Below are positions 2,401 through 63,032 of a stretch of DNA of 64,000 nucleotides, in pieces. Position 1 is the stretch's first letter, and each line of letters begins with the position of its first letter. The stretch spans positions 42,904,001-42,968,000 of the forward strand of contig JANJGN010000013.1 of assembly GCA_026770705.1 (NCBI GenBank), in the 5' to 3' direction. A program made the position numbers and the translations under genes. The notes beneath the pieces were generated by a model. The model did not search any database, had not been told where the DNA came from, and saw only the letters and a program-made list of their open reading frames with translations. This DNA comes from Isurus oxyrinchus. Its lineage: Eukaryota.

Positions 2401-3478
2401 TAGAGCACACGCCATACCTATGGAAAGCACTGAGCAACTAACTAAACTAGTAAGTTTTTTTTAGGCCATGGAGACAGTAAAGCAAATGGTTAAGGTCATG
2501 AATATGTATATCTTCGGCTGGCTGAAGAACAGGATAGTGGAGATAAAACTTTATTTCATATATAAATGAGTCAATTAAATTGGCCATTGGATGGAGACAG
2601 TTTATCAAGAAAATTGTGATTAGACATGGAGGGAAATGGAAAATAAACAATTGTACCATCAGGAAGGAAAACTTGTAAACATTGCAAGAGACAACTTGGC
2701 AAGGGCCAGAAGTAATGACTGTGCAAAGGGAGGAAAATGGGAGTCAACACTTTTTTCAACAACATTGTATTTAGCAGTTATAAACTTGGATTTACAGAAG
2801 TTGTGAACAGAAATAAAGTTGGCCTGGGCTGTTCCAGACTGATTAAGTTGTCACGTGTGATAGCCAAACTTTTTATGAGCAATGGCAGAATGACAGAATG
2901 GTGAGAATGATCCATGACATCAGTTACTTATCCAGCACAGTCAAAAGAGGCAAGAAAGTGAAAGCAGCAGTTGGATCAGGGAAGACTGAACTGCAGGGAC
3001 AAATTTTAACCTGACCCTTCCATTGAGAAACTAAGCAGGTCAGGTGCAACCCTGGTGTTACACCTCATCTGAATAGAGAGTGTTATTGGTTGGGCTGTAA
3101 AACCGGCATTACACCCCATCCTGTGGGTTTCCTGCTCAGTGAATTAAGTTATATTACCACTATACCATCAACCAAGAAGGAACTGCTGTAATTAAGTGGG
3201 ATTTTGTATAAGGTATTCTGCAAGAAGCATGAAGGTATACAGATGACAGACTGGAAAAGACCATCAAACTGATCATTCAGCAATGTTGCTCCATAGTAAT
3301 GCAAGTTTACCCAGAAGAATTAAGCAGGAAGGTGACAGATGCAACATAAGAGTTAGAATAAGACTGGAAGAAACTGAATTGCTGACATGTCAGATGGACA
3401 ACATGTTTGCAGCCACAACAAAAACAGAATTACCTGGAAAAACTCAGCAGGTCTGGCAGCATTGGCGGAGAAGAAAAG

Positions 3479-3517
3479 AGTTGACGGTTCGAGTCCTCAT
3501 GACCCTTCGACAGAACT
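3479..3517 (-). ncRNA. Minimal type I hammerhead-like motif (CUGUCGA core, GAAA box mutated)
   Basis: Reverse complement AGTT-CTGTCGA-AGGGTC-ATGAG-GACTC-GAAC-CGTC-AACT. Confidence 0.55.
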
Positions 3518-3903
3518 TGAGTTCGAGTCCAAGAAAGAGTTGAAATATAAGCTGGTTTAAGGTGTGTGGGGGGAGCAGAGAGAGAGAGAGAGAGAAGTGG
3601 AGGGGGGGTGTGGTTGTAGGGACAAACAAGCTGTGACAGAAGCAGATCATCAAAAGATGTCAACAACAATAGAACAAAAGAACACATAGGTGTTAAAGTT
3701 GGTGATATTATCTAAACGAATGTGCTAATTAAGAATGGATGGTAGGGCACTCAAGGTATAGCTCTAGTGGGGGTGGAGGGAGCATAAAAGATTTTAAAAT
3801 ATTTAAAAATAATGGAAATAGGTGGGAAAAGAAAAATCTATATAATTTATTGGAAAAAAAAGGAAGGGGAAAACAGAAAGGGGGTGGGGATGGAGGAGGG
3901 AGC

Positions 3904-4813
3904 TCAAGACCTAAAGTTGTTGAATTCAATATTCAGTCTGGAAGGCTGTAAAGTGCCTAGTCGGAACATGAGGTGTTGTTCCTCCAGTTTGCGTTGGGCT
4001 TCACTGGAACAATGCAACAAGCCAAGGACAGACATGTGGGCAAGAGAGCAGGGTGGAGTGTTAAAATGGCAAGCGACAGGGAGGTTTGGGTCATTCTTGC
4101 GGACAGACCGCAGGTGTTCTGCAAAGCGGTTGCCCAGTTTACGTTTGGTCTCTCCAATGTAGAGGAGACCACATTGGGAGCAACGAATGCAGTAGACTAA
4201 GTTGGGGGAAATGCAAGTGAAATGCTACTTCACTTGAAAGGAGTGTTTGGGCCCTTGGACGGTGAGGAGAGAGGAAGTGAAGGGGCAGGTGTTGCATCTT
4301 TTGCGTGGGCATGGGGTGGTGCCATAGGAGGGGGTTGAGGAGTAGGGGGTGATGGAGGAGTGGACCAGGGTGTCCCGGAGGGAGCGATCCCTACGGAATG
4401 CCGATAAGGGGGGTGAAGGGAAGATGTGTTTGGTGGTGGCATCTTGCTGGAGTTGGCGGAAATGGCGGAGGATGATCCTTTGAATGCGGAGGCTGGTGGG
4501 GTGATAAGTGAGGACAAGGGGGACCCTATCATGTTTCTGGAAGGGAGGAGAAGGCATGAGGGCGGATGCGTGGGAGATGGGCCGGACACGGTTGAGGGCC
4601 CTGTCAACGACCGTGGGTGGAAAACCTCGGTTAAGGAAGAAGGAGGACATGTCAGAGGAATTTTTTTTGAAGGTAGCATCATTGGAACAGATGCGACGGA
4701 GGCGAAGGAACTGAGAGAATGGGATGGAGTCCTTACAGGAAGCGGGGTGTGAGGAGCTGTAGTCGAGGTAGCTGTGGGAGTCGGTGGGTTTGTAATGGAT
4801 ATTGGTGGACAGT
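3904..4813 (-). pseudogene. Penelope-like RT C-terminus, Cys-rich linker and GIY-YIG endonuclease (one in-frame stop)
   Basis: Translates YKPTDSHSYL...PFSQFLRLRRICS...AFRRDRSLRDTLV...CPRKRCNTC...NLVYCIRCSQCGLLYIGETKR...RFAEH; stop at 4225-4227. Confidence 0.9.
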
Positions 4814-4825
4814 CACCAATTGGAA

Positions 4826-5689
4826 TTTTGCTTCCAATCTCCACCCCTCCATCATTTTCACATGGTCCATCTCTGACACTTCCCCTTCCTTCCTTGACCT
4901 CTCTGTCTCAATCTCTGGTGATAGACTGTCCACCAATATCCATTACAAACCCACCGACTCCCACAGCTACCTCGACTACAGCTCCTCACACCCCGCTTCC
5001 TGTAAGGACTCCATCCCATTCTCTCAGTTCCTTCGCCTCCGTCGCATCTGTTCCAATGATGCTACCTTCAAAAACAGTTCCTCTGACATGTCCTCCAATG
5101 ATGCTACCTTCAAAAACAGTTCCTCTGACTGTCCACCAAACTCCAGCATGATGCCACCACCAAACACATCTTCCCTTCACCCCCCCTATCGGCATTCTGT
5201 AGGGATCGCTCCCTCCGGGACACCCTGGTCCACTCCTCCATCACCCCCTACTCCTCAACCCCCTCCTATGGCACCACCCCATGCCCACGCAAAAGATGCA
5301 ACACCTGCCCCTTCACTTCCTCTCTCCTCACCGTCCAAGGACCCAAACATTCCTTTCAAGTGAAGCAGCATTTCACTTGCATTTCCCCCAACTTAGTCTA
5401 CTGCATTCGTTGCTCCCAATGTGGTCACCTCTACATTGGAGAGACCAAACGTAAACTGGGCAACCGCTTTGCAGAACACCTGCGGTCTGTCCGCAAGAAT
5501 GACCCAAACCTCCCTGTCGCTTGCCATTTTAACACTCCACCCTGCTCTCTTGCCCACATGTCTGTCCTTGGCTTGCTGCATTGTTCCAGTGAAGCCCAAC
5601 GCAAACTGGAGGAACAACACCTCATCTTCTGACTAGGCACCTTACAGCCTTCCGGACTGAATATTGAATTCAACAACTTTAGGTCATGA
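4826..5689 (+). pseudogene. Second copy of the Penelope-like RT/GIY-YIG region, internally rearranged
   Basis: FLDLSV...YKPTDSHSYL; a short tandem duplication and a ~190-bp deletion near 5130; NLVYCIRCSQCGHLYIGET; premature TGA at 5630. Confidence 0.88.
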
Positions 5690-5986
5690 GCTCCCTCCTC
5701 CATCCCCACCCCCTTTCTGTTTCCCCCTTCCTTTTTTTTCCAATAAATCATATAGATTTTTCTTTTCCCACCTATTTCCATTATTTTTAAATATTTTAAA
5801 ATCTTTTATGCTCTCCCCACCCCACTAGAGCTATACCTTGAGTGCCCTACCATCCATTCTTAATTAGCACATTCGTTTAGATATTATCACCAACTTTAAC
5901 ACCTATGTGTTCTTTTGTTCTATTGTTGTTGACATCTTTTGATGATCTGCTTCTATCACTGCTTGTTTGTCCATACAATCACACGC

Positions 5987-6014
5987 ACCCCCCACCCCCC
6001 CCACCTCCCCCCCC

Positions 6015-6072
<58 letters not shown>
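5987..6072 (+). repeat. Poly-C run followed by (CA)n microsatellite
   Basis: Directly visible. Confidence 0.95.
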
Positions 6073-6075
<3 letters not shown>

Positions 6076-6117
6076 TAAACCAGCTTATATTTCAACTCTT
6101 TCTTGGACTTGAACTCA

Positions 6118-6156
6118 AGTTCTGTCGAAAGGTCATGAGGACTCGAAACGTCAACT
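6118..6156 (+). ncRNA. Minimal type I hammerhead ribozyme-like motif (variant CUGUCGA core)
   Basis: AGTT-CTGTCGA-AAGGTC-ATGAG-GACTC-GAAA-CGTC-AACT: stem I AGTT/AACT, stem II, GAAA box, palindromic ACGT mini-stem III, GUC cleavage triplet. Confidence 0.65.
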
Positions 6157-7009
6157 CTTTTCTTCTCCGCCGATGCTGCCAGACCTGCTGAGTTATTCCA
6201 GGTAATTCTGTTTTTGTTTTGGATTTCCAGCATCCGCAGTTTTTTTGTTTTTATGTTTGCAGCCAGTAAGGGCTTACCTTTAGTACTGACCTCGTCAGTA
6301 GAAGAGCCGAGTCATAGTTGATGATCAACAGTAAAGCCATTAAGAATTGAGATTTCAGGAGGGCCAAAGTAGATTTGACTTAATCTAACAAAAAGTTGAG
6401 ATGTTGTCAAGAGCTGTCAACATTATGAGTGCCATAGAGGTTGGGCATTAGCTAGATGAGATTAGCTGCACTATGAAACTGTTTTGTCATAAATATCTCT
6501 TAATACCTAGAGCACACTGACAGAGTGTGAGGAGTAAAAGCAGAGAAAATGAATTGGATGAAGAGATAAGAAACAAAATTGATAAGATAAGAAAGAATTG
6601 TAACACTGAGGTGTGTCATTATGAGAAAGTGTGAGATGTGGGGCATGAAGAAGTGAAAAAGTTAAAAATAAAATGATCTACCAACCTCCTGTAATACTGA
6701 ACTGCCCTGTGAGACTTAGCAGTTTCAATGAGAGCTATGAAATGAATCTCACTGGTAGTCCTGCAGGAAACCAATCAGATGTGTGGGAAAGTCTGTCTTT
6801 GTTACTAGGGCAGGAAGAGATCCAAACATATGTTAATGGTCGAGAGAAGGGCTTCAAGTGAAGTCCAGAATGTTTGCTGTAGTAACTCATAATGAGATAC
6901 ATGCTGTAGAAGCTGACAGCTCAGAACACTGTTGGCAGTGTGAATGACAATAGGACTCACTGGGACTGACAATCCCTCACTTAAGTGAGTTGCAATTAAT
7001 GCCACCAGG

Positions 7010-8030: not shown

Positions 8031-9631
8031 ATATGTCTCAATATCTAAGTAATGTGCCTTAATATCCTGGTTTGCTAATTCTTGATTTGAACTTTAGAAT
8101 TGTTTTAAGTTTCGTATTATTATTTATATGGAAGAATAGAGAAAGGTTTTCTATCCTTTTGGATATTTTATATATCTGACAATAATGGGCCAAGTGATAT
8201 GATTTAATAAAGAAAAAATTTCACCAAAAATTTGCATGCTCTAGAGAGATGACTGATACTCCGCTTTGCGGGAAGCAAGTCCCTTTATTAAAATTATAGC
8301 ATTGTTGGATTAATTGCATCCTGTGCTCACAGAAGAATATGTAATTATTTTAGGGGTTAATGCAATTTGTTGGCTACATTATATAACAGTAAAATGGATT
8401 TCTTCATAATTCAAAGAGTTAGGATTTATATGTCACTAATGCCTGACATTTGAACCTGCCTTAGTTATGAGTTTTGTCTGCTCGCAGCCAGGATACTTGG
8501 TAGAATGATTCATCCCTATGGTTTCTGCATACATGTGAGTTCAGCTTACCCATGCGTCTCTCCATTTCTGACATTTGTGCAGTGGTCCAAGCTTTGGAGC
8601 TCAATTGTTGCCCACCTTGTTTGAAGAAGCTGTGTGAGTTAAGAAGGAGCTTGATTTTAGCTCACTCAGATTTGAGTCACTTCATCAAAGTTAAAATTAA
8701 GCCCAAGCAATTGTGACATGTTGTGCATCGGAGGAGAAGAGACATTAGTAAAAATGAAGCAGATATCAAATTAAATTCAAATTCATACACATCGATCTTA
8801 ACTTGAACTGAAAGGGGGACAGTGGATGTGGAAAACCGTCCAGGCCTTGGTGGTATTAGGCCAAAGTGATTTGAACTCCTGGGCTGCATCTACATATCCC
8901 CCAGTCATTTCTGATGACAGGAGGCCAATGCTGAGGACTACAGATATGGTAAGTTGCAGAGTGTGAGTTTCAACAGGGCCTCATGCTCCAGGATGGATTC
9001 GGGGAATCCAGAGGAGCAGGGATCTAAACATCTGTTGCGACGGCCAGAGGGAGACCTCTGCTCCTCCAGATTCCACAAGGAAAATAAACAAAAGTTAAAA
9101 AAACATTCTTTCTTCTGCCCCAGCTCCACGTCATGTATACTGTTCATCAGGTGAGAAGCCCGCAATGCCTGTCATGTTCTAATTTAAATGGCATTTGACT
9201 TTCGATGATACTTTCAGGGGATGTTGTACATATTTGATGAAGGACCCCTTTGATTTCCAACAGGTGTCCCTGTCACCTGCTCAGAAAAGCAAATTAAAAT
9301 CGAAGACTGGGAAAGAGACAGGACCATTGGCAGATGAGTCCACCAGATGAGTTTAAGGGCAGAATTTTCCCAGAATTGCACTAAATGCGTAGTGGATGGG
9401 TAAAATGGAGTCCTACCCGCCGACAAAAATGGCGGTTTTTCACGACTTATCACCCCGAACCCGCCTCATTATTTATTCATTCACATGAAACACGCCATTT
9501 CCATGGTGAGCAGGCTTTCATTCACCCGCCCGCTATCACTGCAATGTTGCATCACGCCGGCCGCCATCTTTAAAAGGCAGCTGCCAGCAAAGCGCTCATC
9601 ACCACCAGCTCACTACCGCTGCCTGGGAGAC

Positions 9632-11289
9632 ATGACTAGCAAAGGAAAAAAGACTGCAGCCCCCCACTTCAATGACGGGTCCCTCGAGCGACTGCTGGAT
9701 GTAGTGGAGGCTGCTGGGATGCGCTTTACCCCTGCTCTGGCCACAGGATGGGCAGCAAAGTCACCAGCCTGGCTTGGGAGGGGGTGGCAGTGGTGGTCAA
9801 TGCAAATGTCCTGCAGAGGAGGACAGCCACCCAGTGCAGCAAAAGGATGAATGAGCTCTTTTGTTCCGCCAGGGTAAGTCACTCTTCTCATCATCCCCAA
9901 CTCACACAGTCACAAACCCATCACACATCCACAGGGCTCACACTCACTGCCCGTGAAAGGGACATCACCATTCACTCTTTCACATACACCATCAATGTCC
10001 TCATCCCATCCATGGGGCCACTCACCACCCACACAGGCCAGGCATATTTATCATCTGGCCCGGCAAGCATCCCAATACACTGTCCCCATCTCTATCCATG
10101 CTGAACAAACTGGCTCACAACAGGAGGGAAAGGTTGCAGACAGGTGTAGGGATTCAGGAGATCAAAGTCTGACAGAATTCGAAAATAGAGCCATCTAGCT
10201 GGTTGATGACCGGTCCTGTGTTGACGGTGAGGTCAGCGCTGCTCTACCAAGTGAGGAACCAGCAATGCAACATCCATCAGACAACCATGCCATGAGTGAT
10301 GTGTCCTGTTTCACAGGCCACTGCCATGCACTAATTATCTCCCCTTGCTTTCACAGGCACATCTGCCAAATAGCCGACAGAATCCATGGCCCAGGGCCTC
10401 CCATCAAGCCCCGAAGAAACCTCCGAAGAGGAACCTGAAGGCACCCTCCCTGAAGACCTGACACAGCGCTCACCCACATCCTCCAGCGCAGAGACACACA
10501 CCTTGGTGGGACCTAGCTTTAGAGTAGCCTCGGGATCACAATCTGGTGAGCACATCACACTTTCTGATCCACAGCAGGCAGAGGCAGAGACTTCCCAGGT
10601 CACCAGGACTCAGAGGACTGTTGGAAGCCAGAATGTTGCTGAGTCCAAGTCAGATGACAAGCCTCTGGACTCGGTCATGTCACAGTTGCTGGAGCTGCAA
10701 AGGCAAGCTCAGGAACAACAGGAAGGGATATCCGCTGCACTCCTCAGATTGCAAAGCACGATGGAGGACTCCGTCCATCTTCAGGCTGAGGTGATAGCGC
10801 TGGCATTGCAACGCACTGAGGTCAGCACTGGCAGGATGACAGCTGCTATGGAGACCTTGGTCCAGGACGTCACTCCTGCACTGCTGGTTGGCATCCAACA
10901 GTGTGTTCATGAGAGGGGTGCTGGGCAGCTTGATCTCACTCCAGCTACCCCATCTGCTCACAGAATCAGCCAGGGGCCCTTGGGCACCCATAGGGAGGAA
11001 GATCAGCAGGTGCACGTTCCAGACAATCCATCCGGGTGACCCTGGGAATGACTGGCCCATCTGACTCCCTGTGACCTCAGGAGCTGCAGCTTCACAGGCC
11101 CAGGAGGGTGCCACTGCCACACAGCAGGACCCCAAAAACAGGTCGGGGCCCACAAACTCTCGGCCCTCCAGAGGATGCCCACCAATGTCATCACAGACAG
11201 GACATCACAGTCAGCAGACTGCCTCCACCTCTGCTGAGGATATCTGGGGAGCACCAAGACATAGCAGCAGGGTCAGGAAAGTTAGGTAA
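9632..11289 (+). pseudogene. Harbinger Myb/SANT-like DNA-binding protein, three exons, disrupted
   Basis: MTSKGKKTAAPHFND..LERLLD..AWEGVAVVVNA..RRTATQCSKRMNEL; donor GTAAGT at 9874; acceptor TTTCACAG at 10356; acidic/coiled-coil last exon. Confidence 0.82.
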
Positions 11290-11842
11290 AGGTAGTTGCA
11301 CAGCCTGACCACGGGTGTTGATCACTTTTACATACTGTTCAATATTGTCAATAAACTCCTAAGAATGTTTCCCTGCCTATGGCTCCTTGTTCTGAAGAGC
11401 AGTGTTCCTGTCACTCAGATGTGAAACCTTTCTGCACAAGATAAAAGGCAGGTGTCTCAGTCCAGGGCCTCTTCCCTGGGCTCTGTGCAGCCTTCAGACC
11501 ACATTGATGGTCCCTGGAAACGTTACTGATGCCTGCACCTCGGCGATGCTGGCCATTGCTGCCAGAATGTAGTGGGCAGATGCCACAGAGTTCTCTCAAT
11601 CCCTCTGTGTGCTCTCAGCACCTTTAAGGTGGGGCTGGCCACCATCACACCAATGACCAGTGATGCTGTGCACCAGATCCTGAAGAGCTGAGGTGCTGAA
11701 GGCGAACACAGCATCAAATGTATCTAAAGTTTCATGGCTGAGTCTCTGAGATGGCCCTGATCACAGAGCGCAAGTAAGCTGCCCTCGACCAGACAGGAAT
11801 CAGACATTCTCAGAGATTATGTGAAGATCTATGGAGTGTCCT

Positions 11843-13084
11843 CCCTGCATGTTGTCATCATCCTCCACAAATCTGGCAGCTATGAGGGCTTCCCGAGCAC
11901 GCCTGCCTCATCTAGCCAGCGCAAGAGCCTCATCCCCATCATTGTCACCACCGATGGCCCCCTTACCTTCATCCCCGTCAGCATCCTCCTCATGGGAGGA
12001 GATGTGCAGCTCCTCCATCTCCTCCTCAGCCAGCTCCTCTCCCTGTTGCACTGCCAGGTTGTAAGGGGCACAGCAGATGATGATGATGCGTGATACCCTC
12101 TGCGGACTGTAGTGCAGGGCTCCACCAGACTGGTCCAGGCACCAGAACTGCATCTTCAGCATCCTGATGGTCTGCCCCACCAAGTTGTGAGCTGCTGCAT
12201 GAGCCTCATTATAGCACCGCTCTGCTGCAGTCTGAGGCCTCGGCACTGGTGTCATCAGCCATGGCCTCTGTGGGTAGCCCTTGTCCCCAAGGAGACAACC
12301 CTACAGCCTCTGTGGACCCTGGAAGACTGCAGGGATCTGTGACTGATTCAGGATGTAGGCATCATGCACACTCCCTAGAAACCATGCGCACACCTGCAGG
12401 ATTCATTTCTGATAGTCACATACCAGCTGCACATTCAGGAAGTGGAAGCCATTTTGGTTGATGAAATCTACCGAGTGTAGCAATGGAGACCTGAGCGCCA
12501 CATGGGTGCAGGCAATCACACCTTGCGTCTTGGGAATCCCGAGATCAGGGCGAATCCCTAACATCCTGGCCGTCCCGGTCCCGGGCGAAATGCACAAAGT
12601 TGTGTGCTATGGTGAAGGTGGCATTCATGATCTCATGGATGAATTTGTGAGTGGCGGATTGTGAAATCCCACAGAGGTCACGCATGGAGCTCTGAAAAGA
12701 GCCATTGGCATAGAAATTGAGCACCATGGTCACTTTCACAGCCAATGGCAGCAGATGCCCTCCATGTCCCCTTGGCACCAAGTCCTGCAGTAAGTGGTAG
12801 ATGTGAGCCACCAGGTCCCTAGACATGCGCAGTCATCAGCAACACTGGTTCTCAGTCATCTGCAGGAATGGCAGACGATGTCTATAGACCCAGGGCATCG
12901 CTTGGCGCTGACCAGCCGCAGCTCGCTGTTGCCCCTGGGCAGTATGTGCAGGATCTCCTGCTGCCCCTTCTTCACGAGGTTGCTGCTCCTGCCTTTGTGT
13001 AGCCAGGAGCCTCAGTCACTCTCTCCTCTGTCTTCCACGGTCTCTGTAGGCCATCAGGCGTAAAGCTAGGTCACCAGGATCCAT
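11843..13084 (-). pseudogene. Harbinger DDE transposase (HARBI1-like), frameshifted
   Basis: LNFYANGSFQ..GDLCGISQS-like motif, IACTHVALRSP (from IDCTH), [52 protein letters not shown]. Confidence 0.9.
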
Positions 13085-14285
13085 GATTCTGACGTGGTCC
13101 GCCTGCAGCATGAAAGCGAGAGAGACGTGTTTATCATGGCTGTGCTTAGCGCCTTTCCTGGCCTAGTATGACTGCCTCTTAATGCTTCCCGGAGAGTGCT
13201 GGTCACCCCTCGGATGGTCAGAGATGAGCGCGCTGCATGGCTGCCCTGTCAGCCTACGTCACGGTGGACACTGGTCCAAACCAGGATGCTGAGATTGCAA
13301 GGGGCTGTGAGCTCCTCCAGCAGCAACTGTTATGTGACCAGCACTGGCGAGGAGATCGCACAACATGTGCAGTCCTACTGATCTGCGGTCCAATAAAGTG
13401 GTGGTGGACTCGAAGTCTGCCTGGGGGTTAGGGCTAGTGGTGGGGGCTAAGGAATGGAGCACTTGGTGGCCCTTTGATGCACCTGCATTGCATGGGTGGA
13501 CAGGTTAAGAGTCCAAACCCAATCATATAACTGTGGCTGTGCTTGATCTGTCTAAGTTGCAGAGGCATGGTCAGTTGATACAGGCATCCCTAATGCGTGG
13601 CCACTTCCCCTACCCCAGCCCCCTGCCCCACCCTCCCCTATTGCCTTGTGCAGGATGCACCGACAGCAGTCGCCTCCGAGGATGGCTAGCACTTGCCCCT
13701 GGACACCACCCCCTCCCTCAGCAGTTGCCTCCAGAGCTAAGCATTAGTTGCCCCCGACCCCACCGGTGCCCCTGAGACCTGCATTCAATGGGCGAGCTGT
13801 GGAGAACGCTGCTGATCACTCACCTCAGTTCCCCCAAAGTGAAGGCCGCCAAGTGCACATCGCCTGCGCGCTGTTGTAAAACACATCGGCGTCCATTACC
13901 ACCACCATGGACAGATGATATGGCAGGGTTCCAGAGCCTGGTGAGATGGCCTTTTAATTATATGCTAACGTATTACAATTATCTCCCCACTGACCGATGA
14001 TGGGAAACATGGCCCGCCATTGGCCGAGCGGATGATCGCGACCTGCCTTCACACTGTCATGAAGCAGATTGCGCCATATTTTCCGCGTGCGCCACCTATC
14101 ATGCCGGCTGCCAGCGGGCTGGAAATTTCCGCCCTAACTGTCTGTCCACCTCTTTCTGTAAAGAGGATAATGGTGGTTATTCTGTCAATCCCCTAATTTT
14201 TATTGTTAGGTCTTCACAGGCTGGGGATTGCAATCTTTTTTATCAAGTGGCAATTGTGGTTTTACACTAAGGCTATTATCTTATT

Positions 14286-18142: not shown

Positions 18143-19441
18143 ATGACGGCCAAATATTTCAAATCAGGCACAAGCTTGTAACTTCCTCCTGAAACAAATG
18201 AAAATGTTGTCAATATATGTTCTATATGGGGGAAGATACAACTTGCAAAAGGACTGAGCACCTTACAAGTCAATCGCTGGGCAGAATTTTCTATGTTCAC
18301 TGACGTCAGGCATGAGCGCACAATATGGTGGCAAGGCCAAAAATTGGTTTCACATCATCATGAAACACTTTTGTAACCATCCACTCTGCCGGTCAATGGT
18401 GGGCAGCGTTTCCTGCTGCCGGACATTGGGAAGTTCATTGTAATATAACTGCATATAATTATAGGCCCAGCTCGCTGGAATCGGCCCCCCACAATGGATC
18501 ATCCGAGCACGTCTGTGTTTCATAACAGCATATATAAGGCTTGTACTGACGAGCTGCATGTCGAGGGGAATTCAGATGTCAGTACACAGTAACAGTGCAC
18601 AGTGCTCGCCTCTTGGACTCAAGGTTGAGGCACCATGCATTCAGGCGAAGGAACAGGCAGGTTGGCTAGCTGACAGTGCGGTGCCGGGGCAAAGATCTGT
18701 CCCATGGTTGAGGTGAGCTGGGTGAGGGGTGGGTAGCAAGTGGCAAGGGCTGCCCTGTGGTTGATGGTAGTGCACAAGGAGGTGCAGGGGGCAGGGAGGG
18801 AAGTGGCCATGCATTAAGGAAACCTTATATAAACTGACTAGTCCTCCGCAGCTGAGACAGTTCAGGCACAGCCACATTGACATGCTTGGAGTCAGGTCTC
18901 TAGCTTATCTGCCCACTCAAACAACGCCGAGGCCTAGCAGTGCCACCAAATGCTCCAAAGCTCTTCACCCCTCAGGCACAGACTGTAAATTAATAAGCAC
19001 TTTAGTGGACTGCAGAACAATTGGATGATTGCGCACGTTGTACAATTTCCTTGCGAAATCTGGCCATGGAGCAGACACTGGTGGTGGCGCTCACAGCTGC
19101 TTGCAATGTCATCATTCTGGTTTGGACCAGTCTCCCCCATGATTCAAGCTAACAGTGCAGCCTTGCAGCACGGGTTAGGAGAATACCTGCGCCTGAGCTG
19201 AGAGCACAGTATGCAATCTAATGGGCAAAACTGCCGCCAATCTGTCAGGTGAAGTGGGGCCGATGTGGGTGGAGTTTCAGGCAACCATGCAGCGCACTAA
19301 ACTCTGGCCATCCAAGTGGTGGCCAGCACTCTCCAGGATGCGCTAAGGGGCCTTCACACTTAACCAAGACAGGTTCTTAGGAGACCCAAGCTAACCCATG
19401 CATCTCTGTCTTTCATCCTGCAGGAGGAGTACATCAGGAGC

Positions 19442-20613
19442 ATGGATCCTGGTGAACTAGCTGTATGCCTTGTGGCATACAGAGAGCAGAGATGAAGCAG
19501 AAGAAAGTGCAGAGGTACCTGGCTGGGCAGAGGGAGGAGAAGCACCCTCAGGAACAAGGGGCGGCTGGGCTCCCACATGCACCGCTGGACAGCCACAGGG
19601 AGCCATCGCTGGTTGTCGTCTAGCTAGGCCCAGGGTCTATAGACGCCACCTTTCATTCCTGCAGGTGACCAAGTACCAGTGTCAATGCAGACTGTGCATG
19701 TCTAGGGAATTGGTCGGTCATATCTGCCACCATGGAGGGCATCCACTCCAGTGGCTGTAAAAGTGACCATGACGCTCAATTTTTGTGCCAGTGGCTCCTT
19801 TCAGTGCTCCACAGGTGACCTCTGTGGGATATCACAAGCCTTCACCCACAAGTGCATCCATGAGGTCACAGACGCCACCTTCATGTTGGCGCACAACTTT
19901 GTGCATATCGTCTGGGACCAGGAAAGCCAGGATGTAAGGATGCTGCGATTTGCCATTGGTGGAGGATGCCACTGACTGCATTCATGTGGTGCTCAAATCT
20001 CCATGGCAACAAACGGTCAACTATGTCAACCACAAGGAATTCCATTTGCTGAATTTGCAGCTAGTGTGCGACTAGCACAAACATGTCCTGCAGGTCTGCA
20101 CAGGGTTTCCAGGGAGAGTCCACAACTCCTACATTCTCAGTAGGTGTCAGATCCCTGATGTATTCCGGGTCCACAGCAGCTGCAGGGTTGGCTTCTCGGG
20201 GATGTGGCTGACAACATCTGTGCGGCAGCCTCAGACTGCAGCAAAGAGAAGGTGCAACAGCTTATGCTGCAACTCACACCTTGGTGGAAGAAACCATCGA
20301 GATGCTGAAAATGAGGTTACGGTGCCTGGACCGGTTTGATGGAGCCCTGTAAAACTGTCCACAGAGGGTGCCACACATCGTTGTCGCCTGCTGTGCCCTT
20401 TACAACCTGATGCTGCAACAGGGAGGGGAGCTGGCTGAGATGGGGATGGAGAAGATGCACATCTCCTCTAATTAGGAAGACAGGGACGACAGTGAGAGGG
20501 TCCTCAAAAGCAAGGATGACGGTGATGAGTCCATCACACTGGCCAGATGAGGGAGGTGATCTCGGGAGGCCCTCATTGCTGCTAGATTCATGGAAGATGA
20601 TGACGACATGTAG
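19442..20613 (+). pseudogene. Harbinger DDE transposase, disrupted
   Basis: MDPGEL start; VAVKVTMTLNFCASGSFQCSTGDLCGISQAFTHKCIHEVTDA; many frameshifts and deletions. Confidence 0.88.
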
Positions 20614-21329
20614 TGAGGAGGCACCACAGATCCTCACATTGCATCTATGAATATTTGCCTCTAGTCTGGCTGATGGCAGTGCATGTATCCCCTGTGTTAA
20701 GGCTCCTGTCATGGATACGCAGTGGAGGCCCTAATAGCCACAGGAGTATGATGATGACATACAGTGAGGACACTCCATAGATCTTCACATTGCTTCTGTG
20801 AATGTCTAACTCCTGTCTGTCTGAGGGCAGTTTGCTTGCGCTCTGATCAGGGTCATATCATAGAGATGCATTCATGAAACTTTAAAAGCATTTGATCTTT
20901 TGTCCGCCTTCAGCACATGACACCTTCAGGAGCACCGTGTCACTGGTCACAGATGCTGAAGAGATGGGGGCCAGTCCCACCTTAAAGGTGCTGAGAGCAC
21001 ACAGAGAGAACAATGGAACTCTGTGACCCCTGCCCACTACATTCTGGCAGCAATGACATGCACCACCGAGGTGCAGGCATCAGTGATGTGTCCAGCAAGC
21101 GTGAGGCTGGACCGTCACTTTGGTCTGAAGGTTACATACTACACAGGGAAGAGGCCCTGGACAGAGACACCTGCCTTTATCTAATGCAGGAACCAAGGTT
21201 TCACATGAGTGACACAAGCACTACTCATCAGAACAAGGAGGCATAGGCAAGGAGACACTCTTGGAAATTTATTTACAATAGGGAGCATTTTGTACATGTC
21301 ATTAATAACTGTGCCCAGGCCATTCAACT

Positions 21330-22993
21330 ACGTCTCTTAACCTTCCTAACCCTGCTGCTATGTCTTGGTGCTCCCCTGATATCCACAAAGGGGATGGAGG
21401 CAGCCTGCTGACTGCTACACCCTGTCTGTGATGACCTTGAAGGGGGTCCTCTAGAAGGCCGAGACCTGGGTCCTGCTGTGTGGCAGTGGCACCCTCCTCA
21501 GCCTGTGGCGTTGGAGCTGTTGGGGTCACAGGAAGAGGGGACTTGGATGGGCCAGACACTCTCGGAGTCACCTGGGCAGATGGCCCCGGGGTGTGCACTT
21601 GCTGATCCTACTCCCTATGAGAGCCCAAGGGTCCCAGCTGACTCTTTGCAAAGAAGGGAAAGCTGGAGTAAGATCGAGCTGCCCTGCGACCCTCTCACAT
21701 TGACAGTGTTGGAGGCCAACAATGGCTTCAGCGATCGAGTTCAGCCGGCACAGTAGTGCAGGACTGATGTCTTGGACCAAGGTCTCCATGGCGGCAGCCA
21801 TCCTAACAGTGCTAACTTCGTGGCATGCCTGTGCTATCACCTCAGACTGAAAGCAGATGGACTCCTCCATTGTGCCTTGCAATCTGAGGAGAGCATTGGA
21901 CATCTTTCTGATGTTCCCGAGCTTGAATTTGAAAATCCAGCAACTGAGGAATGACCGAATCTAGAGATTCCTCATCTGACTCAGTTTCAGCAGATTTCTG
22001 GCCTCCAGCACTCCTCCGTGCTGGAAACCTGGGAAGTCCCTGCCGCCGCTGCTATGGACCAGACTGTGCAATGTGCTCACCAGATTGTGACTCCAAGGCT
22101 ACTCCAGAGCTAGGTCCCACTGAGGTGTGTGTCATTGCGCTGGTGGAGGGTGTGGGTTAGTGCTGTGTCAAGCATTCAATTGGGGCTTCAGCAGATTCTC
22201 TTCCGAGTTGTCTTCGGAGTTTGAGTCAATGACCTCGGTTGTGGACTCTCTCGGCTGTTTCTCAGATGTGCTTGCCAAAGCAAGGAGAGATAATTAGTGC
22301 ATGGGAGTGGCCTGTGAAAGAGGACACATCACCCATAGCATGGTTGTCTGATGGATGTTTCACTGCTGGACCCTCACTTGGTAGAGCATCGGCAACCTCA
22401 CCATCTGCTCAGGAATGGTCCAGATCTTCACCAACTAGCTGTATGACTCAATTTTCAAAGTTCATGAGGACCTTGATTTCTGACATTCCTCCACCGGTCT
22501 GCGACCTCTCTCTTTTGTTGTGTGCCGGCTTGTCCTGCATGAAGATAGATGGAGAGATTGTAAGCAGGACACATGCCAGGCCAGATGATAAGTATGCCTG
22601 GCATTTGTGGGTGGTGAGTGGTGCCATGGATGGGATGAGGACCATGAAGATGTGTTTGAGAGAGTGAATGGTGATGTCCCTTGAACTGGTAGTGAGTGAG
22701 ACCCCTGTGGATATGTGATAGGTTTGTGAGTGTATGAGTTGAGAGTGATGAGGAGTGACTTATCTTGGTGGAACAGAGGAGATCATTCATCCTCTTTCAG
22801 CACTGGGTTGTTGTTCTCTATTGAAGTGCATTGGCGCTGACCACCATTACCACCACCTCCCAAGCTGGATTGGTGACGTTGCTGCCCCTCCTGCAGCCAG
22901 AGGAGAGGGTAGAGGACATCACCGCAGCCTGCGTGGCATTCAAAAGGCATCACTGAATCTGGGGGCTGCAGTCTTCTTACCTTTCAGGGCCAT
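21330..22993 (-). pseudogene. Harbinger Myb/SANT-like gene, disrupted
   Basis: MALKGKKTAAPRFSDA exon 1; DKPAHNKRERSQTGGGMSEIKVL exon 2; last exon similar to 10357-11289. Confidence 0.85.
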
Positions 22994-23410
22994 GTCTTCT
23001 GTGCAGTAGTCCTGGGCTGGAAGCACCAGAGAGGTGTGAGCATGGCTGCATTCTAAACATGGCGCCTGGCATGAGGAAGCAGCGAGATGACAGCATGGCG
23101 GGTGAATGAAAGCCCACCCACCATCAAAATGGTGTCTTTCCCAGAAATGTATGATTAATGGGGCGTGTCTGGGATGATGCAGTGTGAAAAACCCACCACT
23201 GTGGCTTGCGGGTAAATATTTCATTTCCAGCCCGCTACCACACTGAGTGCAAATCTGGGACAATTCTGCCCACTGACCTGGAAGAGCTTCAGGCCAAATT
23301 TATTCAAATAGTTAATCCACACAAGGAAACCAAAGCAAAGGTTTTATTAAGTAAATAAAAATAAAAACCAGCCGTGGACCTGGTTAATGTCTTAACAAGT
23401 GCCTCAGGCC

Positions 23411-23908
23411 AAACTCTGTCAGTAGTTTCTACAGATCAGTTTAAGCTGTTGGTAAATACACAAAGAAGCCTACTCTGGACTCCACATTACAACTACTCCA
23501 CAGAAATTTTTATTTTTACTGTGGGACATTAGTTAATATTTTATCTTACTCCCCTTCTACAAGTAAATATAAAATTTGTGATTTGTGATTTCAAATAAAA
23601 TGGCAGCTTCATGCACTGGTTCAGCGGAAGGAGTCTGCCCAATGTATCCATGCTACATAGTGCTAATTAGCTTCACCTTCACAGCAGCAAGTATTCCCTG
23701 TAGCAACTTAACTGACCCTTATTGTACACAAAGGAACTTGCTACCCCAATTTAACACAACACACTGTATATAGCAGTTGTGACTTTGGTAATAGATATTT
23801 CTATTACATCATCTGAAAATACTATATAGTTTCATGAGATACCAGCATCAGTGGCAAGATCAGCATTTGTTTCCCATCCCTAATTGCCCTTGGGTGGGTT
23901 TTGGTTAT
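23411..23908 (+). repeat. Local direct duplication, copy A
   Basis: Aligns end to end with 25093-25593; core 23658-23772 is identical. Confidence 0.95.
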
Positions 23909-24408
23909 AACAAGGTTCAAAATGTTAATGAGAAAAGATTATATTAATGAAAAAATAATGCTTCGATAATGACTAGTTTCAAAAGCTGTAACTTGTGAGA
24001 AGAGTGGGGCTGAATTTTAGTCGGATGTCTGAAGTCACCTCCCACCCACCACCCCACCATACACCATCCACCACCCCCCTCCACCCCGGAGCCAAAAGCG
24101 AGAAGCGACCCTACTTCGGCTGGCAGTGGGACCCGGGAAGATATGAACTGGCAGTGGCCTATTAAGTAGCCACTGCTGAGGCTGCCATCCACTTAAGGAC
24201 AGCAGCCTGCCCTGTCCGCCCCACCCCAATGTTACTCCATTGCTAACAAAGGACCATTTACATTTTTTTAATGAGGAGGTCAATAACCTGCAATATGTGT
24301 GAAAAGGGGATATTCACTGAATGAACTCATTACCACCAATATGAGGGCCAATATCACGAAAGGACTATAGCTATGTGGCTATAATGTTCATGCTATCATG
24401 GAGTCAGT

Positions 24409-25043
24409 GGGCTTGATTTTATATCCACAAACCAGGTGGGCCACTCCCCCTGCGCAAACATAATATAGGGTGTGATGACATCAGGTCGGGTCATTCTGAA
24501 ATAACTAATTAACCAGCTATTGAGCATGTTAACCACCCAATGGTCGGAAACTTTTCATTGCCCACAGCATTTTACAGGCATTGGCCATGAAAATGTTTGG
24601 GAGTGTTTTTTGGCAGCCAGGATGGGGTGGCACAAGGGCAGAATAAAAGGCCTTCCCCGGGACCTTGGCTGAATGTAGCAGCAGGTTCTGGCAGTGGAGG
24701 TGAGAGTGTCTCTGCGGTTTCTTTTAAACACATTTTTGAGGTTTTATTGAGCTTTCAATAAAAAGTGATGAGATATTCAGAGGGGGTCTTTAAACCTGTA
24801 GCTGTGACCTACTTCTTGTTCATGGCATTAGGTCTCTGCTTCATGACATCAAGTCTATGATTCCACTTTGATGTGGAGCCACCCCCCCTCACACCTCTAA
24901 TTAGCCTTCGTCCCACTGGACGGCCTCCAATTGGCCATCTGACGCTTGATTGGATGAGCCGAGATGGTGAGGGGAGGAGCAAGTGAGCCATTCAGTATCC
25001 ATTCTGCCTCCCTCACCCTGCCGAGAAACGTAAAACCCAGCCC
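24409..25043. mobile_element. Non-autonomous Harbinger-type element
   Basis: Termini GGGCTTGATTTTA / TAAAACCCAGCCC; flanks AGT/AAT. Confidence 0.6.
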
Positions 25044-25092
25044 AATGTTTCTGAATGACTTTCAATGTTGATTTAACCCAAACTGATGATGG

Positions 25093-25593
25093 AAGCTCTG
25101 TCAACAATTTCTACAGATCAGTTTAATTGTTGGTAAATAAGCAAAGAAGTCCACTCTGAACTTCACATCACAACTGCTCCATAGGACTTTCTATTTTTAC
25201 TGCGGGACATTAACTAATACTTTATCTTACTCCCCTTCTACAAGGAAAAATAAAATTTGTGATTTGTGATTTCAAATAAAATGGCAGCTCCATGCACTGG
25301 TCCAGCGGAAGGAGTCTGCCCAATATATCCATGCTACGTAGTGCTAATTAGCTTCACCTTCACAGCAGCAAGTATTCCCTGTAGCAACTTAACTGACCCT
25401 TATTGTACACAAAGGAACTTGCTACCCCAATTTAACACAACACACTGTATATAACAGTTGTGACTTTGGTAATAGATATTTCCATTACATCATCTGAAAA
25501 TACTTACTATATTCTTTCATGAGATACGAGAATCGGTGGCAAGGCCAGCATTTGTTCCCATCCCTAATTTCCCTTGGGTGGGTTTTAGTTATA
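25093..25593 (+). repeat. Local direct duplication, copy B
   Basis: Aligns with 23411-23908; core 25339-25453 is identical. Confidence 0.95.
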
Positions 25594-26529
25594 CCTGTGC
25601 TTTAAATGAAGAAGCCTATCAGAAGGGTGAAAGACTTTCCATCATCAACCAGGTGGAAATGGTTGAATATCATGACTATAATAACAAGATAGGCTTTTAG
25701 AAAGTGTGAATAATTTGAGATCAATACCTGTCCATCTTCTCAGCCAGGTGAGATTGACAGCCTTTCCACATGGCACTTTGTATTGGCAAAAGCGTTTTCA
25801 TCTCATGACTGGAGACGGCTATCATAGTACAAGTTTTGAAAATGTATGTAATGCTTTACAAATACCCAAATATATATTCTTCCAAAATTGAAATATACAC
25901 AGATAAAGCCAATGCCCTTCTCTGAACTTTACTTTCCTTGTTTGTTCTAATGACTAATATGCTCTTCTACTCTTCACCTACTGCTTTGAAACAATTTACT
26001 GCTCTAACTCGTACTCCAAAGGATCTCACAACTTTGAAACCATTTATTCAGTATTTCAGCCCTGTTGCAAGCTTCTAGCTTTAAACCCCAAGCTTGGAAG
26101 AACTTAATCACTGGTTGCTGATTTACTTCATCCTCTATTTTATTCTTTTCAAACTTGGCCGTGCGTTGTATTCTAGTCTTAGTTTCTCAATAATAAAGCT
26201 ACTGCAGCCTTTAAACGTAATGCTTACACATGATATGGGATGTCTGTTACTCTATTTCAGGCAGTCATACTTCTAAATAGATTACAGATGTGATAAAATA
26301 TTATTTGAATGCCAAAAATACAACCAATGTTGGAAGCCCCAGATGGTCTGAAGGGTCTATCATAAATTAAATAATAATGTGACTTTGAGATGAGTTGGAT
26401 GTTAACCATCATAATCGCAGTCTAAAACAAACTGTGGTTTTGCCAGTAACGACACTGGTATCTATTTTTTTCAGCATTCAAGGCAGCATTCACATATAGG
26501 CTGAGTTTTCTTTATGCAGAGTTGAAGAG

Positions 26530-29257: not shown

Positions 29258-30078
29258 AGGCTGAATTTTACGCCTCGTGGGCAGGTGCACGCCCGACCCG
29301 AATGGACATAAAATAACACAAGATGACGTCAGGCGAGGGTCCCGATGTCATCCCATACGCGACCAATCATCAGATCGGCGGACGTGCTCAGATGTCAGTG
29401 CCGCATTCGTCCACAATTAAAAGGCCACTTAAGGCCATTAAAAAGTCAATTGATCTCTCTTTACATTGCCTGCACGATTTTGTGCTCATTGCATAGGCCA
29501 AATGGGCAGGCGAGCAGCCTACTTTTAACAAAACCTCATCCAAGGATGGGATAAAAAGGGTTAGCAGCATTGCCAGTATGAGTAGTGAGGAGTATAGGAG
29601 ATAGTTTGCTGCTGGTTGCATATTTGAACTTGATTGCTATATCTTTGTTCTGAGCTTCAGTCTTAGCATTTCTAGGCTTCATTTCAGGACTCATTGGTGT
29701 CTCCAAGGCCCCCAGAGAATTTTGATTGTGTGGACCCTCCCAGGTATCAGACAGCCTTCTGTAACCCTGGTAAAGGGGATTGTGGCCTTTGCTGGAGGCA
29801 CCTCCCCTGAGGAGGAAGAGAGGGGCAGAAGGGAGAGGAGGCCAGGTGTACCAATGCAGCTTCCAGGGGAGTGACCTGTGGGAGGAGAGGTGCAGGCACA
29901 AGGGGACCAGTGCCAGCAGGTAGTCCAAGGTGTAAGGGGCTGCTATCTTGCTGCCAGGGTTTTCAGGCAGCAATGCAGCTACCTCAATATGTCCAAGGTA
30001 CAAGCCGAAGGAGTCTCCCCCTCTCCAGGGAGATTGACCCCCATTTCTCAGATGATTGAGTCTGAACTCAGCAACTAA
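29258..30078 (+). mobile_element. Second Harbinger family: left terminus and transposase N-terminus, truncated
   Basis: Terminus (A)GGCTGAATTTTAC; translation ARVFRQQCSYLNMSKVQ..RRSLPLSRE..LTPISQMIESELSN; subterminal region related to 45715-46357. Confidence 0.72.
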
Positions 30079-30470
30079 CTCAATGGGGTTTTCAGCACGT
30101 CTGAGACATCCAGTGCTTTTCCTTCTTCTAGTTCCTTGTGCTTCAGTGTCAGATTTACATTTTCCAATCTCATTTCTGTCTTTTCTTTCTCCATCTGCAA
30201 CAGAACTTTGTCCTTGTCCTTCATTTTGGTTTCACTGTTAGCCAGGTCTGTCTCCAGTGAAGTCTTAACTTGTTTCAATTCTGTAATTGTGCTACTCATG
30301 GCTTTGTTATCCACTTGCAGCTTGCAAAGTTCTATGTCTTTTCCTTTCAATGCCTCCTCATTTTCATTCAACTGGTTATTCAGCTCTTTAGTCTTTTTCT
30401 TGTAGCTCTCAGCTGCCTCCTGGAATATGGAACATTGCTGAGTCTTCTCTGCCAACTGGTTCTTCAGTTT

Positions 30471-30682
30471 CAAAAACAGAAAATGCTGGAAAAACTCAGC
30501 ATGTCTAGCAGCATATGTGGCGAGAGAAACTGCGTTAACGTTTTGAGTCTGTATGACTCATATAGAGTCAAAACATTAACCCTGTTTTTGTCTCCACATA
30601 TGCTGCTAGACCTGCTGAGTTTTTCCAGCATTTTCTGTTTTTGTTTCAGATTTCCAGCATCTGCAGTATTTTGCTTTTATCT
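30471..30682. mobile_element. Short fold-back Penelope terminal insertion inside the UACA-like fragment
   Basis: Inverted arms centred near 30557; TSD TGGTTCTT(CA/TG)GTTT at 30457-30470 and 30683-30696. Confidence 0.85.
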
Positions 30683-31668
30683 TGGTTCTTTGGTTTGTTC
30701 AAAGTGACGTTAAATTCATATTGCTTCTCTTGGTAATTTTTAAGAGGCACAAACTTCGACCTGAGGGGCTTTTGTGGTGTGTGAAGGTCTTTCAACACGT
30801 TTTCCTGTTCTTTGCAAGGCTCGCTTGCTATATAATGAGTTTTTATATAATTTAGCAGTCTCCATGAGTTTCTCCTGCTGTTCTTGCATGCTGCTGTTTA
30901 AGACAGCCTCAGTTTCTTCATGTCGCTCAATGGTTACATTCCTTTTGCATTTGATCTTGAAGAACAATCAGTTGTTCTTTCAGCTATTTATCTTCTTGTT
31001 GACCTCTTGCCAACCCAGTCTGGGCTTCAGTACATCATTTTGTTGCTACTGATAGTTCCATCACAGCTTATTCTCAATGTCCTTTTAGCTCCTCATGTTT
31101 TCCATGACTACATATTGATTCTTCAGGGTCACAACTTCTTTGTGTGCCTTTTCTGCCTGCTGTTTCACCTGGCTGTCTATCTGGTTGAGTTTCCTAATTT
31201 CTGCTTTGATTTGTCACCTGTGGAATTGGGGGTCATGATTTCCTCCTTGTATCTTTGTGTTGTTTGAAAAAATTTGTTTGTTCAGATCTTGAACAGCTTG
31301 AAGGCTTCAGTTTATTGTGCATTTTCAAAAGTATATACTCAGCTTGAATCTTGCACTTCAAACCTTCCAGTTCAGCTCTGATGCAAACATTTTCCTGTAG
31401 AAAAGTTTTATTTACATTTTGCACATTTTGCTTCTGTTGAGTATCCTCAGATAGCTCTCCTTCATTCACAACCAGCTACTCACTCCACACTGCCATCTGC
31501 TGCTGCAGTTTACATACTGTGTCAGTGTTTTCAAAAAACTCTATCTTTAAGTGTTTTGGCTGCTTCTCAGCCATTTCTTTCTTCTGCACTAAAATCTTTG
31601 GCTCGTGCATTTCATTGCACTGACATGGTCGGCAACCATCTTGTGATTTACTTCAATATTATCTCCCC

Positions 31669-31740
31669 CCTCTCTGGAGTTTGCTGCTGCCCCCTCACAG
31701 GAGTTTTTTGTTGCCCTTACTCTGGGGTCTTTAGTTGCCC
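31669..31740 (-). repeat. 24-bp tandem repeat x3 (GQLKTPE*/GQQKTPVR/GQQQTPER)
   Basis: Three imperfect in-frame units visible on the minus strand. Confidence 0.75.
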
Positions 31741-33304
31741 ATGGCGCTTTATTGGGAGTGTGTGAAGTCTTCTTCTAGGGCCTGCGCTCTCCACAATTTG
31801 GAGTTTAAAATATCTGTCAAAACCTTTCAAACATTGTTGAGCATTGACCTATACTTTGGCTGTGGCGTACTTCACCTGCAAATGGGCCAAACACAAATAA
31901 AAACTCGTCAACTTGTACTTTTTCTGATTCCTGATTTAATCTTGTAATTCTCCTGTCAACTAAAAATTATTTTCTCCAAGGCTCCCACTCTTGGGTCTGG
32001 ATTAGTAATTTCCTTAGCCAAAATGCATTTAACTCTTCTAGTTTTCTGTCCATGGCTGTTCTTTTGTAGTAGTAGTTGCAGCTTTAAATGCGTTTGCTCC
32101 TTTAAGGCAGTGACTACTTTTTTTCACTTCAGCTGTCTGCAGCTGTTGGTCCTTTCTCTGTGTGATTTTCCTGTGCTTTTTTGGGTTCAACAGGATCCCC
32201 GTGATCATGGCCTTTTGTTTAAATTTAAAGCCACAGCACTTCTGTTCGCTCTGCTTGCCATGAAGGGGATTTTTTTTTTTTTTTTTTACTTGCAGCTGCC
32301 TCTTTTTTTGCTCTGCATGTTCTTCTTTTTAACTTTTTTTAAAGTTCAGTGCAGCAGAGCCACCACATGCTATGGTGCTGCTGTAGGCCCCCTTCTCCAG
32401 CTCTCTTTCAGCTGCTTTCTGGGTGCTTAGCCCCAGGGACTGCTGCCTCTTCTACAACATAAATACAGCTTCTTATTTTGCAATTTTGCTCAGCTGTTTT
32501 GTGATCTGACCAGGTTTCCTTCACTATGGATCATTCAGGGCCTTGCAATGGAATTCCATTCACTCTGGCAGATTCCTCAACTTCCAAGCCTGTAGTAAAG
32601 CTTCTTCAACTGTTTCTTCAATTTTTCTTCTCGTCAGGCTCTCTAATCAAGCTTCAAATGCTGTTGGTTTTTCATATCTTGGGATTCTGTTCTGGGTTCA
32701 TCAGTTAAATGTTACTTTTAATACCACCGCTGATTACCATGTGATATTATGGATTCATTTGGCGTCTCATTGATGAGATCTTGAGAATTGTATGTTTAAA
32801 CATGAACCATTTATTAGTCATCCTTAAAAATGTACAGATCTCAGTTATTGCCATGCATGGTACAGTTTCCATGCTGGCTCCTTCTAGACTGTTCTATGAG
32901 CCCATTACCATGTGACTCTACACATCATTTTGTGGGTAGTGATATTCTCCAGTCCCACTTTATTCCTTGCTCTGCTGAGGACCTTTACATTACAATGGCA
33001 TGCAGGCACACACAACATGAAAGGGTGACTCTCAGCCACAGTGAAAGAGCTGAACAGGAGCAGCTCTTCCAGCCTAAAATCACTGATTTTATTGGGAACA
33101 GCAACTTTGTGCAACATCTCTCAAATATCTTGGATTCCATTAGGGGTAATCTCACCTCATTGCCTGTGAGACTCCCTGAAGTGTGTGCATTCTAAAATTG
33201 GTTGTACCTCTGAGGAGGGGGTGCAGGTCACTTCAGCAGTCCCAGTGATAGGTGCAGAACTCTAACAGCCCCTGACTTCTCCACAGCCATGTACAAGACC
33301 CATA

Positions 33305-61032: not shown

Positions 61033-61364
61033 GGACACTCCAAAGATCCTCACATTGCATCCGTGAATGTTTGACTCCAGTCTGGCTGATGGCAGTGCAC
61101 ATACCCTCTGTGATAAGACTCCTGTCATGGAGACGCAGTGGATTCCCATAGTCCCTACATTCCAGGAGAATGATGATGATATACAGTGGGGATACTCCAT
61201 TGACCCTCACATAGTTTATGTGGATTATCTTTCTCCTGTCTGGCTGATAGCAGCTCACTTGCACTCTGTGAACAGAGTCATATCATGAAGATGCAGCGGA
61301 GAAACTTCAACTTCTCCTGATCCTATGGCACCCTTAGTGAGCTGAATTCTTCAGGACCACAGTG

Positions 61365-62655: not shown

Positions 62656-63032
62656 CCAGGCACAATTGCTGATGAGTTGGGGGTCCAGCTGCATCTCAGA
62701 AGTGCTGAGAGCCCTCAGAGAAAATGATGGAGCTCTGTGCCACCGGCCCAGGACATTCTGGCAGCAATGATAAAGCCCCATCGAGGTGCAGGCATGAATT
62801 ATGTGTCCAGTGACTGTGGAGGTGCACCATCAATGTTCTGGGAAGGTTGCACACAAAGCACAGGGAAGAGACACCTGCCTTTATCTTGTGCAAGAACCAA
62901 GGTTTCACTTCAGACTGACACGGCATTGCTCATCATAACAGGCAGCCATATCCAGGGTGAAACTGTTGGGAATTTACTTACAACAGTTAACATTATGTAC
63001 AAGTGATTAATGCTCATGCCCATGCAGTAAAA

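Follow-up and report, generated by a model that had tools for sequence, protein, structure and literature searches.

A duplicated non-coding unit downstream of TBX5 in Isurus oxyrinchus with a low-divergence centre and a possible history of constraint and gene conversion

The analysed window, a stretch of 64,000 nucleotides from Isurus oxyrinchus, contains two direct copies of a non-coding unit that share a low-divergence centre. In a comparison with one close species, the centre of copy 1 has accumulated substitutions below the rate of neighbouring neutral DNA, while the rate in copy 2 matches neutral expectation. It is likely that copy 1 is under some constraint. In the reading that we tentatively favour, with our confidence about evenly balanced, copy 1 would be a non-coding element of about 230 bp, likely a distal TBX5 enhancer, and copy 2 would stem from an old local duplication, with its middle likely rewritten from copy 1 through gene conversion, and would now be drifting neutrally; here we infer the enhancer activity, its target and the conversion. 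We graded this and the other readings below by judgement, taking into account the P values and the location in a gene desert.

The two copies are located at 23411-23909 (copy 1) and 25093-25593 (copy 2), with an offset of 1681-1685 and a gap of only 1.2 kb between them, confirming the original prediction of two direct copies of about 500 bp that lie about 1.68 kb apart. The alignment has 44 differing columns out of 503, corresponding to 41 events, and the copies are 91% identical. The differences per successive 50 columns number 8, 10, 4, 3, 3, 0, 0, 2, 9 and 5. A previous count of about 22 differences in the first 130 bp or so was reproduced, with 22 difference events.

The first 408 bp of the unit have only two matching places in the 4.98-Gb genome, and these are the two copies. 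One pattern scan of metagenomes gave 0 matches, which carries no information on vertebrate DNA. A high-copy transposon was rejected as an explanation of the first 410 bp because of these two genome places and the recovery of single contigs at 85% likeness. An assembly artefact was also rejected as the source of the duplication, since contigs from raw data of the same organism (one run) cover the spacer and the ends of both copies without a single difference; the centre is outside their cover. The final 70 to 90 bp of each copy are the tail of a very abundant retroposon (23820-23892, partner about 25505-25576): 38 of 40 genome matches cover only query positions 410-500, with extreme contig depth and poly-T loose ends. 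This tail is common to both copies, indicating that it is older than the duplication. Most of the spacer consists of repeat-derived sequence (24007-25043, approximate limits set by eye), which served as a neutral reference.

Copy 2 is closely bracketed by a 20-nt inverted repeat (25084-25103 / 25628-25647) with 85% identity and 11 nt exact, which may be fortuitous or a relic of the event that produced the copy. In the related species described below, nine extra bases are present at 25649, just behind the right arm of this repeat.

Several other sequences were observed in the window. A long element is present in several old copies that are 70-76% alike (9357-13632, 18321-23271 and 58689-64000), and one of its frames matches DDE_Tnp_4 (Harbinger-like transposase); the second of these copies ends at 23271, 140 bp before copy 1. 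An inverted pair at 3413-4454 / 5139-6222 is 92% identical and is accompanied by a GIY-YIG frame at 5129-5632 (Penelope-like); between its arms is a 99% inverted pair at 4642-4814 / 4924-5096. On the minus strand at about 30000-32800, degraded and apparently intron-less coiled-coil-like frames (Filament, E = 1e-4, below the cut-off) are interrupted by a palindromic repeat at 30471-30650, and these frames look like an old processed pseudogene. A Pfam search with 40 window frames, comprising 39 of the 97 listed and a 57-codon frame discussed below, gave only transposon domains and one sub-threshold Filament match.

Divergence of the duplicated unit

The original prediction drew attention to a 115-bp core. 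The identity of 23658-23772 to 25339-25453 over 115 bp was confirmed, but the probability of about 1e-9 attached to it was inflated, as the underlying value of 0.83^115 = 5e-10 takes the worst flank as the rate. When all 41 events were placed at random over the unit (50,000 draws), a run of at least 115 had P = 0.0005. The same test gave P = 0.12 inside the 280-bp centre (8 events) and P = 0.16 inside the 226 bp shared in the related species (5 events). The rate heterogeneity between flanks and centre is real. With a probability of 0.12-0.16 for the run within the centre, the 115-bp core is not special there but is the longest gap among five later changes in copy 2. The real feature is the low-divergence centre of about 230 bp and not the core.

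For the comparison between species, 24 raw-data runs were found, 20 of them with at least half of the sampled words of 23560-23820 (two organisms, 7 studies), and 7 runs were compared. Organism A is that of this window, and organism B is a related species seen as assembled contigs, in which copy 1 is covered except for 23795-23864. Over the flanks and the spacer, A and B differ at 58 of 2393 positions (2.4%). The centre of copy 1 (23569-23794), a candidate constrained, enhancer-like element, has 0 differences in 226 bp. The centre of copy 2 (25250-25475) has 5 in 226, where 5.5 are expected under neutrality, and these are private changes at 25290, 25302, 25325, 25338 and 25454. The left flank of copy 1 itself changed at the neutral rate (3/158).

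The rate in the copy 1 centre was lower than that in all flanks (binomial P = 0.004; Fisher P = 0.008), and also when tested against the AT-rich right flank alone (P = 0.014) or on the A-lineage rate only (P = 0.013); these values rest on four to five missing changes and on one comparison species at 2.4% distance. Within the centre alone, 0 versus 5 changes in copy 1 and copy 2 gave P = 0.06. For the 115-bp run alone the constraint test has no power (P = 0.06 per copy, with the run ascertained). Part of the stasis of copy 1 may be explained by a low local mutation rate, as the centre contains 1 CpG, compared to 20 and 10 in the reference stretches.

Species B has the copy-1 letter at all five sites of private change in copy 2 (4 of 4 runs of one comparison and one further run), with no alternative contig, and also at three more sites in the left part of copy 2 and at 25095 and 25587. 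By parsimony, 10 of the 12 changes assigned to the A lineage over the whole unit fall in copy 2 and 2 in copy 1 (P = 0.039). In B the copies appear identical over 226 bp, and one B run has a single shared 226-bp contig (25250-25475) with a depth of 41, less than double that of its neighbours (27.5 and 25.6). Site 25454 is firmly G in copy 2 of B, where a copy-2-specific contig starts at 25446 and includes this site; the B letters at the other four centre sites come from collapsed contigs, which can drop a variant.

After removal of A's own changes, the divergence between copies that predates the split of A and B is 29/266 in the flanks and 0/233 in the centre (Fisher P = 9e-9). The left flank (23411-23568) has 24 differences in 158 bp between the copies, 18 of which predate the split by parsimony. 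The 29 old flank differences indicate that the duplication is several times older than the A/B split, with an identical tract of about 230 bp. The unit has the form expected of a converted duplicate, with an identity island of at least about 200 bp and diverged edges in a duplicate that arose before speciation. A minimum conversion tract of about 200 bp of near-identity is given for yeast and rodent cells in the accessible part of PMC3924818, and the length of the centre tract is close to this minimum.

Constraint and conversion may have acted together. Selection would hold the centre of copy 1 still, and the two centres would in consequence diverge more slowly than the flanks. This slowed divergence would keep the centres above the near-identity over about 200 bp on which conversion depends. 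Selection would remove events that transfer copy 2 sequence into copy 1, while transfer from copy 1 to copy 2 would be harmless, leaving copy 1 as the template. The latest reset of copy 2 in this lineage would have taken place at about the time when A and B separated. The reading with the fewest unlikely events is one in which copy 1 is constrained, copy 2 is neutral and conversion connects the two. Gene conversion had been proposed as the neutral alternative to constraint; the identity-island pattern does fit conversion, but constraint and conversion are not alternatives here.

A pattern of decay from the edges is described for converting duplicates, along with the concept of type-C sites, in the sections of PMC2588116 available to us. 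Such sites, at which paralogues are alike within species and different between species, numbered 0 in the A/B comparison, and neither type of informative site occurs in the centre. Direct proof of conversion would come from type-C sites; their absence lowers its probability, with conversion still likely in our favoured reading. By the same result, the pattern that was to count against a functional core, divergence of the core between species while the paralogues stay identical, did not appear in the A/B comparison.

It is possible, but in our view unlikely, that the duplicate is neutral throughout. The centres would then have been equalised by a single conversion tract of about 230 bp at around the A/B split, or by repeated conversion, and the stasis of copy 1 would be attributed to luck and a low local mutation rate. 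The step-like identity island at about the minimum conversion length is consistent with this, as are the short distance of 1.2 kb and the single CpG in the centre. Furthermore, an unusually long identical run was found in 4 of 28 nearby repeat pairs (264 kb; three of the four in one tandem array), compared to 2 of 91 distant pairs. However, a neutral history requires an event in copy 1 with P of about 0.004-0.014, and continuing neutral conversion predicts about 5 type-C sites per 226 bp where none was seen. Within the same region, a tandem array of units of about 150 bp (contig about 42819500-42821570) has a 349-nt identical run amid 80-90% identity, which is likely another homogenised tract.

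The absence of type-C sites would be expected if both copies were functional enhancers that had been under selection since the duplication, without conversion, and if copy 2 had been relaxed only in this lineage. Species B has no change in either centre, and the left boundary is somewhat graded, since the pre-split differences fall from 14 over the initial 100 bp to 4 over the following 58 and then to 0. This history demands zero change in 233 bp of both copies while the flanks gained 11%, followed by the full neutral rate in one copy, and the centres of B may seem identical through contig collapse. We consider it quite unlikely.

Position near TBX5

A crude exon scan of 264 kb (the window and 100 kb on each side) gave 39 candidates, three of which are T-box exons. 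One exon is identical to human TBX5 at 39 of 39 residues, with much lower similarity to TBX3, TBX1 or T. The coding exons at the two ends of the gene resemble those of TBX5. The gene is on the minus strand, from a start about 43 kb to a stop about 32 kb beyond the right window end, and its coding exons are apparently intact (contig about 42999800-43011200). The unit is located 70-72 kb 3' of the TBX5 stop codon. No other convincing exon was found in the 264 kb by this crude scan, so that a nearer gene or non-coding transcript may remain. Further Tbx5 control elements may lie in several kb-long repeat-free blocks between TBX5 and the window.

On the basis of the crude 264-kb scan, the surroundings of the unit are poor in genes and include the developmental regulator TBX5. 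Conserved non-coding elements (CNEs) cluster in gene deserts near such developmental genes and are enriched in TAATTA, according to the consulted part of PMC5728398. The copy 1 centre contains this homeodomain-type palindrome at 23664-23669, a weak point since it is present in 15% of unique 281-nt blocks, and the motifs in the centre are in general common by chance in the unique-block comparison. The suggestion of a constrained enhancer is supported for copy 1 by 0/226 changes against 2.4% in the flanks and by the site 3' of TBX5, but it does not extend to copy 2, whose changes in this species accumulate as in neutral DNA.

The element cns12sh has a length of about 200 bp, is located downstream of Tbx5 at a distance of about 30 kb in zebrafish and 100 kb in mouse, and is reported to be conserved in jawed vertebrates, as stated in the available text of PMC6034701. 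By the same account it is active in fin reporters, and mice and zebrafish in which it was deleted had normal limbs and fins. It is also open in bowfin during fin development, as reported in an excerpt of PMC8423624. Comparison by eye of the zebrafish element with the centre gave a match of 12 of 14 letters at 23712-23725, flanked on both sides by some shorter shared words whose order is the same. Unrelated unique DNA gave a match of this size in 111 of 300 trials. A match of 10 of 10 letters was seen at 23755-23764 in opposite orientation, and unrelated unique DNA gave the same in 51 of 300 trials. With the mouse element, 13 of 15 letters matched at 23722-23736, as they did for unrelated unique DNA in 45 of 144 trials. 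One short motif common to the mouse and zebrafish elements had 1 match in the 264 kb, in a repeat on the far side of TBX5, which yielded no better candidate. The centre might be the shark orthologue of a Tbx5 fin/heart enhancer, possibly cns12sh, that was duplicated long ago in one shark lineage, with the master copy under selection, the spare periodically rewritten by one-way conversion and the spare now diverging in this species only; we consider this reading as a whole improbable.

Predicted RNA and coding features

An imperfect hairpin is predicted on the minus strand at 23684-23744 (partner 25365-25425), with 25 predicted pairs and -21.4 kcal/mol over 71 nt. The original prediction that it folds better on the minus strand was borne out, with -21.4 versus -11.3 kcal/mol. 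The hand-picked 71 nt had z = -2.14, with 7 of 200 shuffles as good, and the whole core had z = -0.26. The hairpin is absent from the minimum-energy fold of the 281-nt context of copy 2. Among GC-matched unique 115-nt blocks, a hairpin as good was found in 2 of 185 in the window; in the wider region, from whose 839 blocks 450 were sampled, 10 contained one, the threshold being the observed value. The hairpin falls in the top 2% of the local background, a mild point for an RNA.

A second hairpin of 38 nt is predicted on both strands within the centre (23601-23638 / 25282-25319); two private changes of copy 2 fall inside it without abolishing the fold.

In known miRNA precursors, two arms of about 22 nt each pair to form a hairpin that is about 60 nt long, and a lower stem of about 11 bp and processing motifs are present. 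A two-arm hairpin of about 60 nt is present here, and the lower stem of about 11 bp and the processing motifs are lacking: the lower stem is reduced to about 4-6 weak pairs, inspection by eye found neither a CNNC nor an apical UGU at the usual places, and a basal UG exists for one cut choice only. A duplicated, lineage-restricted pre-miRNA at 23684-23744 on the minus strand, which is the TBX5-sense strand, is very unlikely. The 61-nt length, the 25 pairs and the strand asymmetry would fit, as would the few matched blocks with an equally good hairpin (10/450 and 2/185), although that block threshold was set from the observed value and the MFE index is 0.69. None of the five changes in copy 2 is inside the hairpin, but five random changes spare a 115-bp run with P = 0.16, and the conservation extends over 226 bp, far past the hairpin.

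A search of the window, the unit and 150 kb of flanks against Rfam 15 gave no match at the gathering score and nothing on the hairpin at E up to 10; two chance matches were obtained elsewhere, with E = 2.4 and 9.3. An H/ACA or C/D snoRNA found little support, the only match being SNORA41 at 23496-23600 (E = 9.3, 18 bits against a cut-off of 80), with no flanking exons found. A Pol III gene was rejected after a check by eye against the box consensus, since the A-box-like stretch at 23617-23627 is not followed by a B box. Of the small-RNA gene in the original prediction, a modest hairpin with 25 pairs was retained, while the absence of Rfam matches, the short lower stem and the lack of any host gene found speak against such a gene. 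The hairpin is probably not a small-RNA gene, and if copy 1 is constrained as in our favoured reading, it would be incidental. In slowly evolving shark genomes, identity between close duplicates is by itself no evidence for an RNA gene.

The ATG reading frame of 57 codons at 23600-23773 on the plus strand, probably open by chance, is highly implausible as a small protein-coding exon behind the splice-acceptor-like stretch near 23563: it is open in both copies with the stop exchanged (TAG/TAA), but 4 of 4 sense-codon differences alter the amino acid, a comparable frame occurs in 49 of 528 unique 280-nt blocks, and neither a Pfam match nor a homologue among proteins of 31-100 residues was found.

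Relation to known systems

The unit belongs to known kinds. It contains a candidate conserved non-coding element, and the block around this element is a local duplicate that was probably converted. In the literature that our search brought up, part of it in excerpt, no description of a duplicated Tbx5 element in sharks was found. If copy 1 is an enhancer, the unit would be a naturally duplicated Tbx5 control element whose copies form an allelic series of five bases, which could be tested in zebrafish reporters. It would bear on which elements drive Tbx5 in paired fins, since deletion of two proposed ones had no effect, as far as the available text of PMC6034701 states. If the unit is neutral, it is an ordinary conversion island. 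The interest of the unit stems from its TBX5 address and from the ease of testing.

Compared to the vertebrate CNEs of gene deserts, as characterised in the part of PMC5728398 at hand, the copy 1 centre is similar in being non-coding, single-locus and AT-rich (39% GC), with a TAATTA, a position near a T-box gene and a rate below that of its flanks. It differs in that its conservation extends over a neutral distance of only 2.4% and not across classes, and in that it is located inside a local direct duplicate.

The centre resembles cns12sh in its length of about 200 bp and its position 3' of Tbx5 (30 kb in zebrafish, 100 kb in mouse and about 70 kb here). The best sequence matches made by eye are at chance level, and a duplicate of cns12sh is not mentioned in the portions of PMC6034701 consulted.

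The closest parallel to the history proposed here in structure is concerted evolution by interlocus gene conversion, as outlined in the accessible parts of PMC2588116 and PMC3924818, with which the unit shares close duplicates that predate the species split, an identity island of about 230 bp and diverged edges. The unit differs from that system in having no type-C sites and in an asymmetry that appears to run one way, as one copy has stayed the same and the other evolves neutrally.
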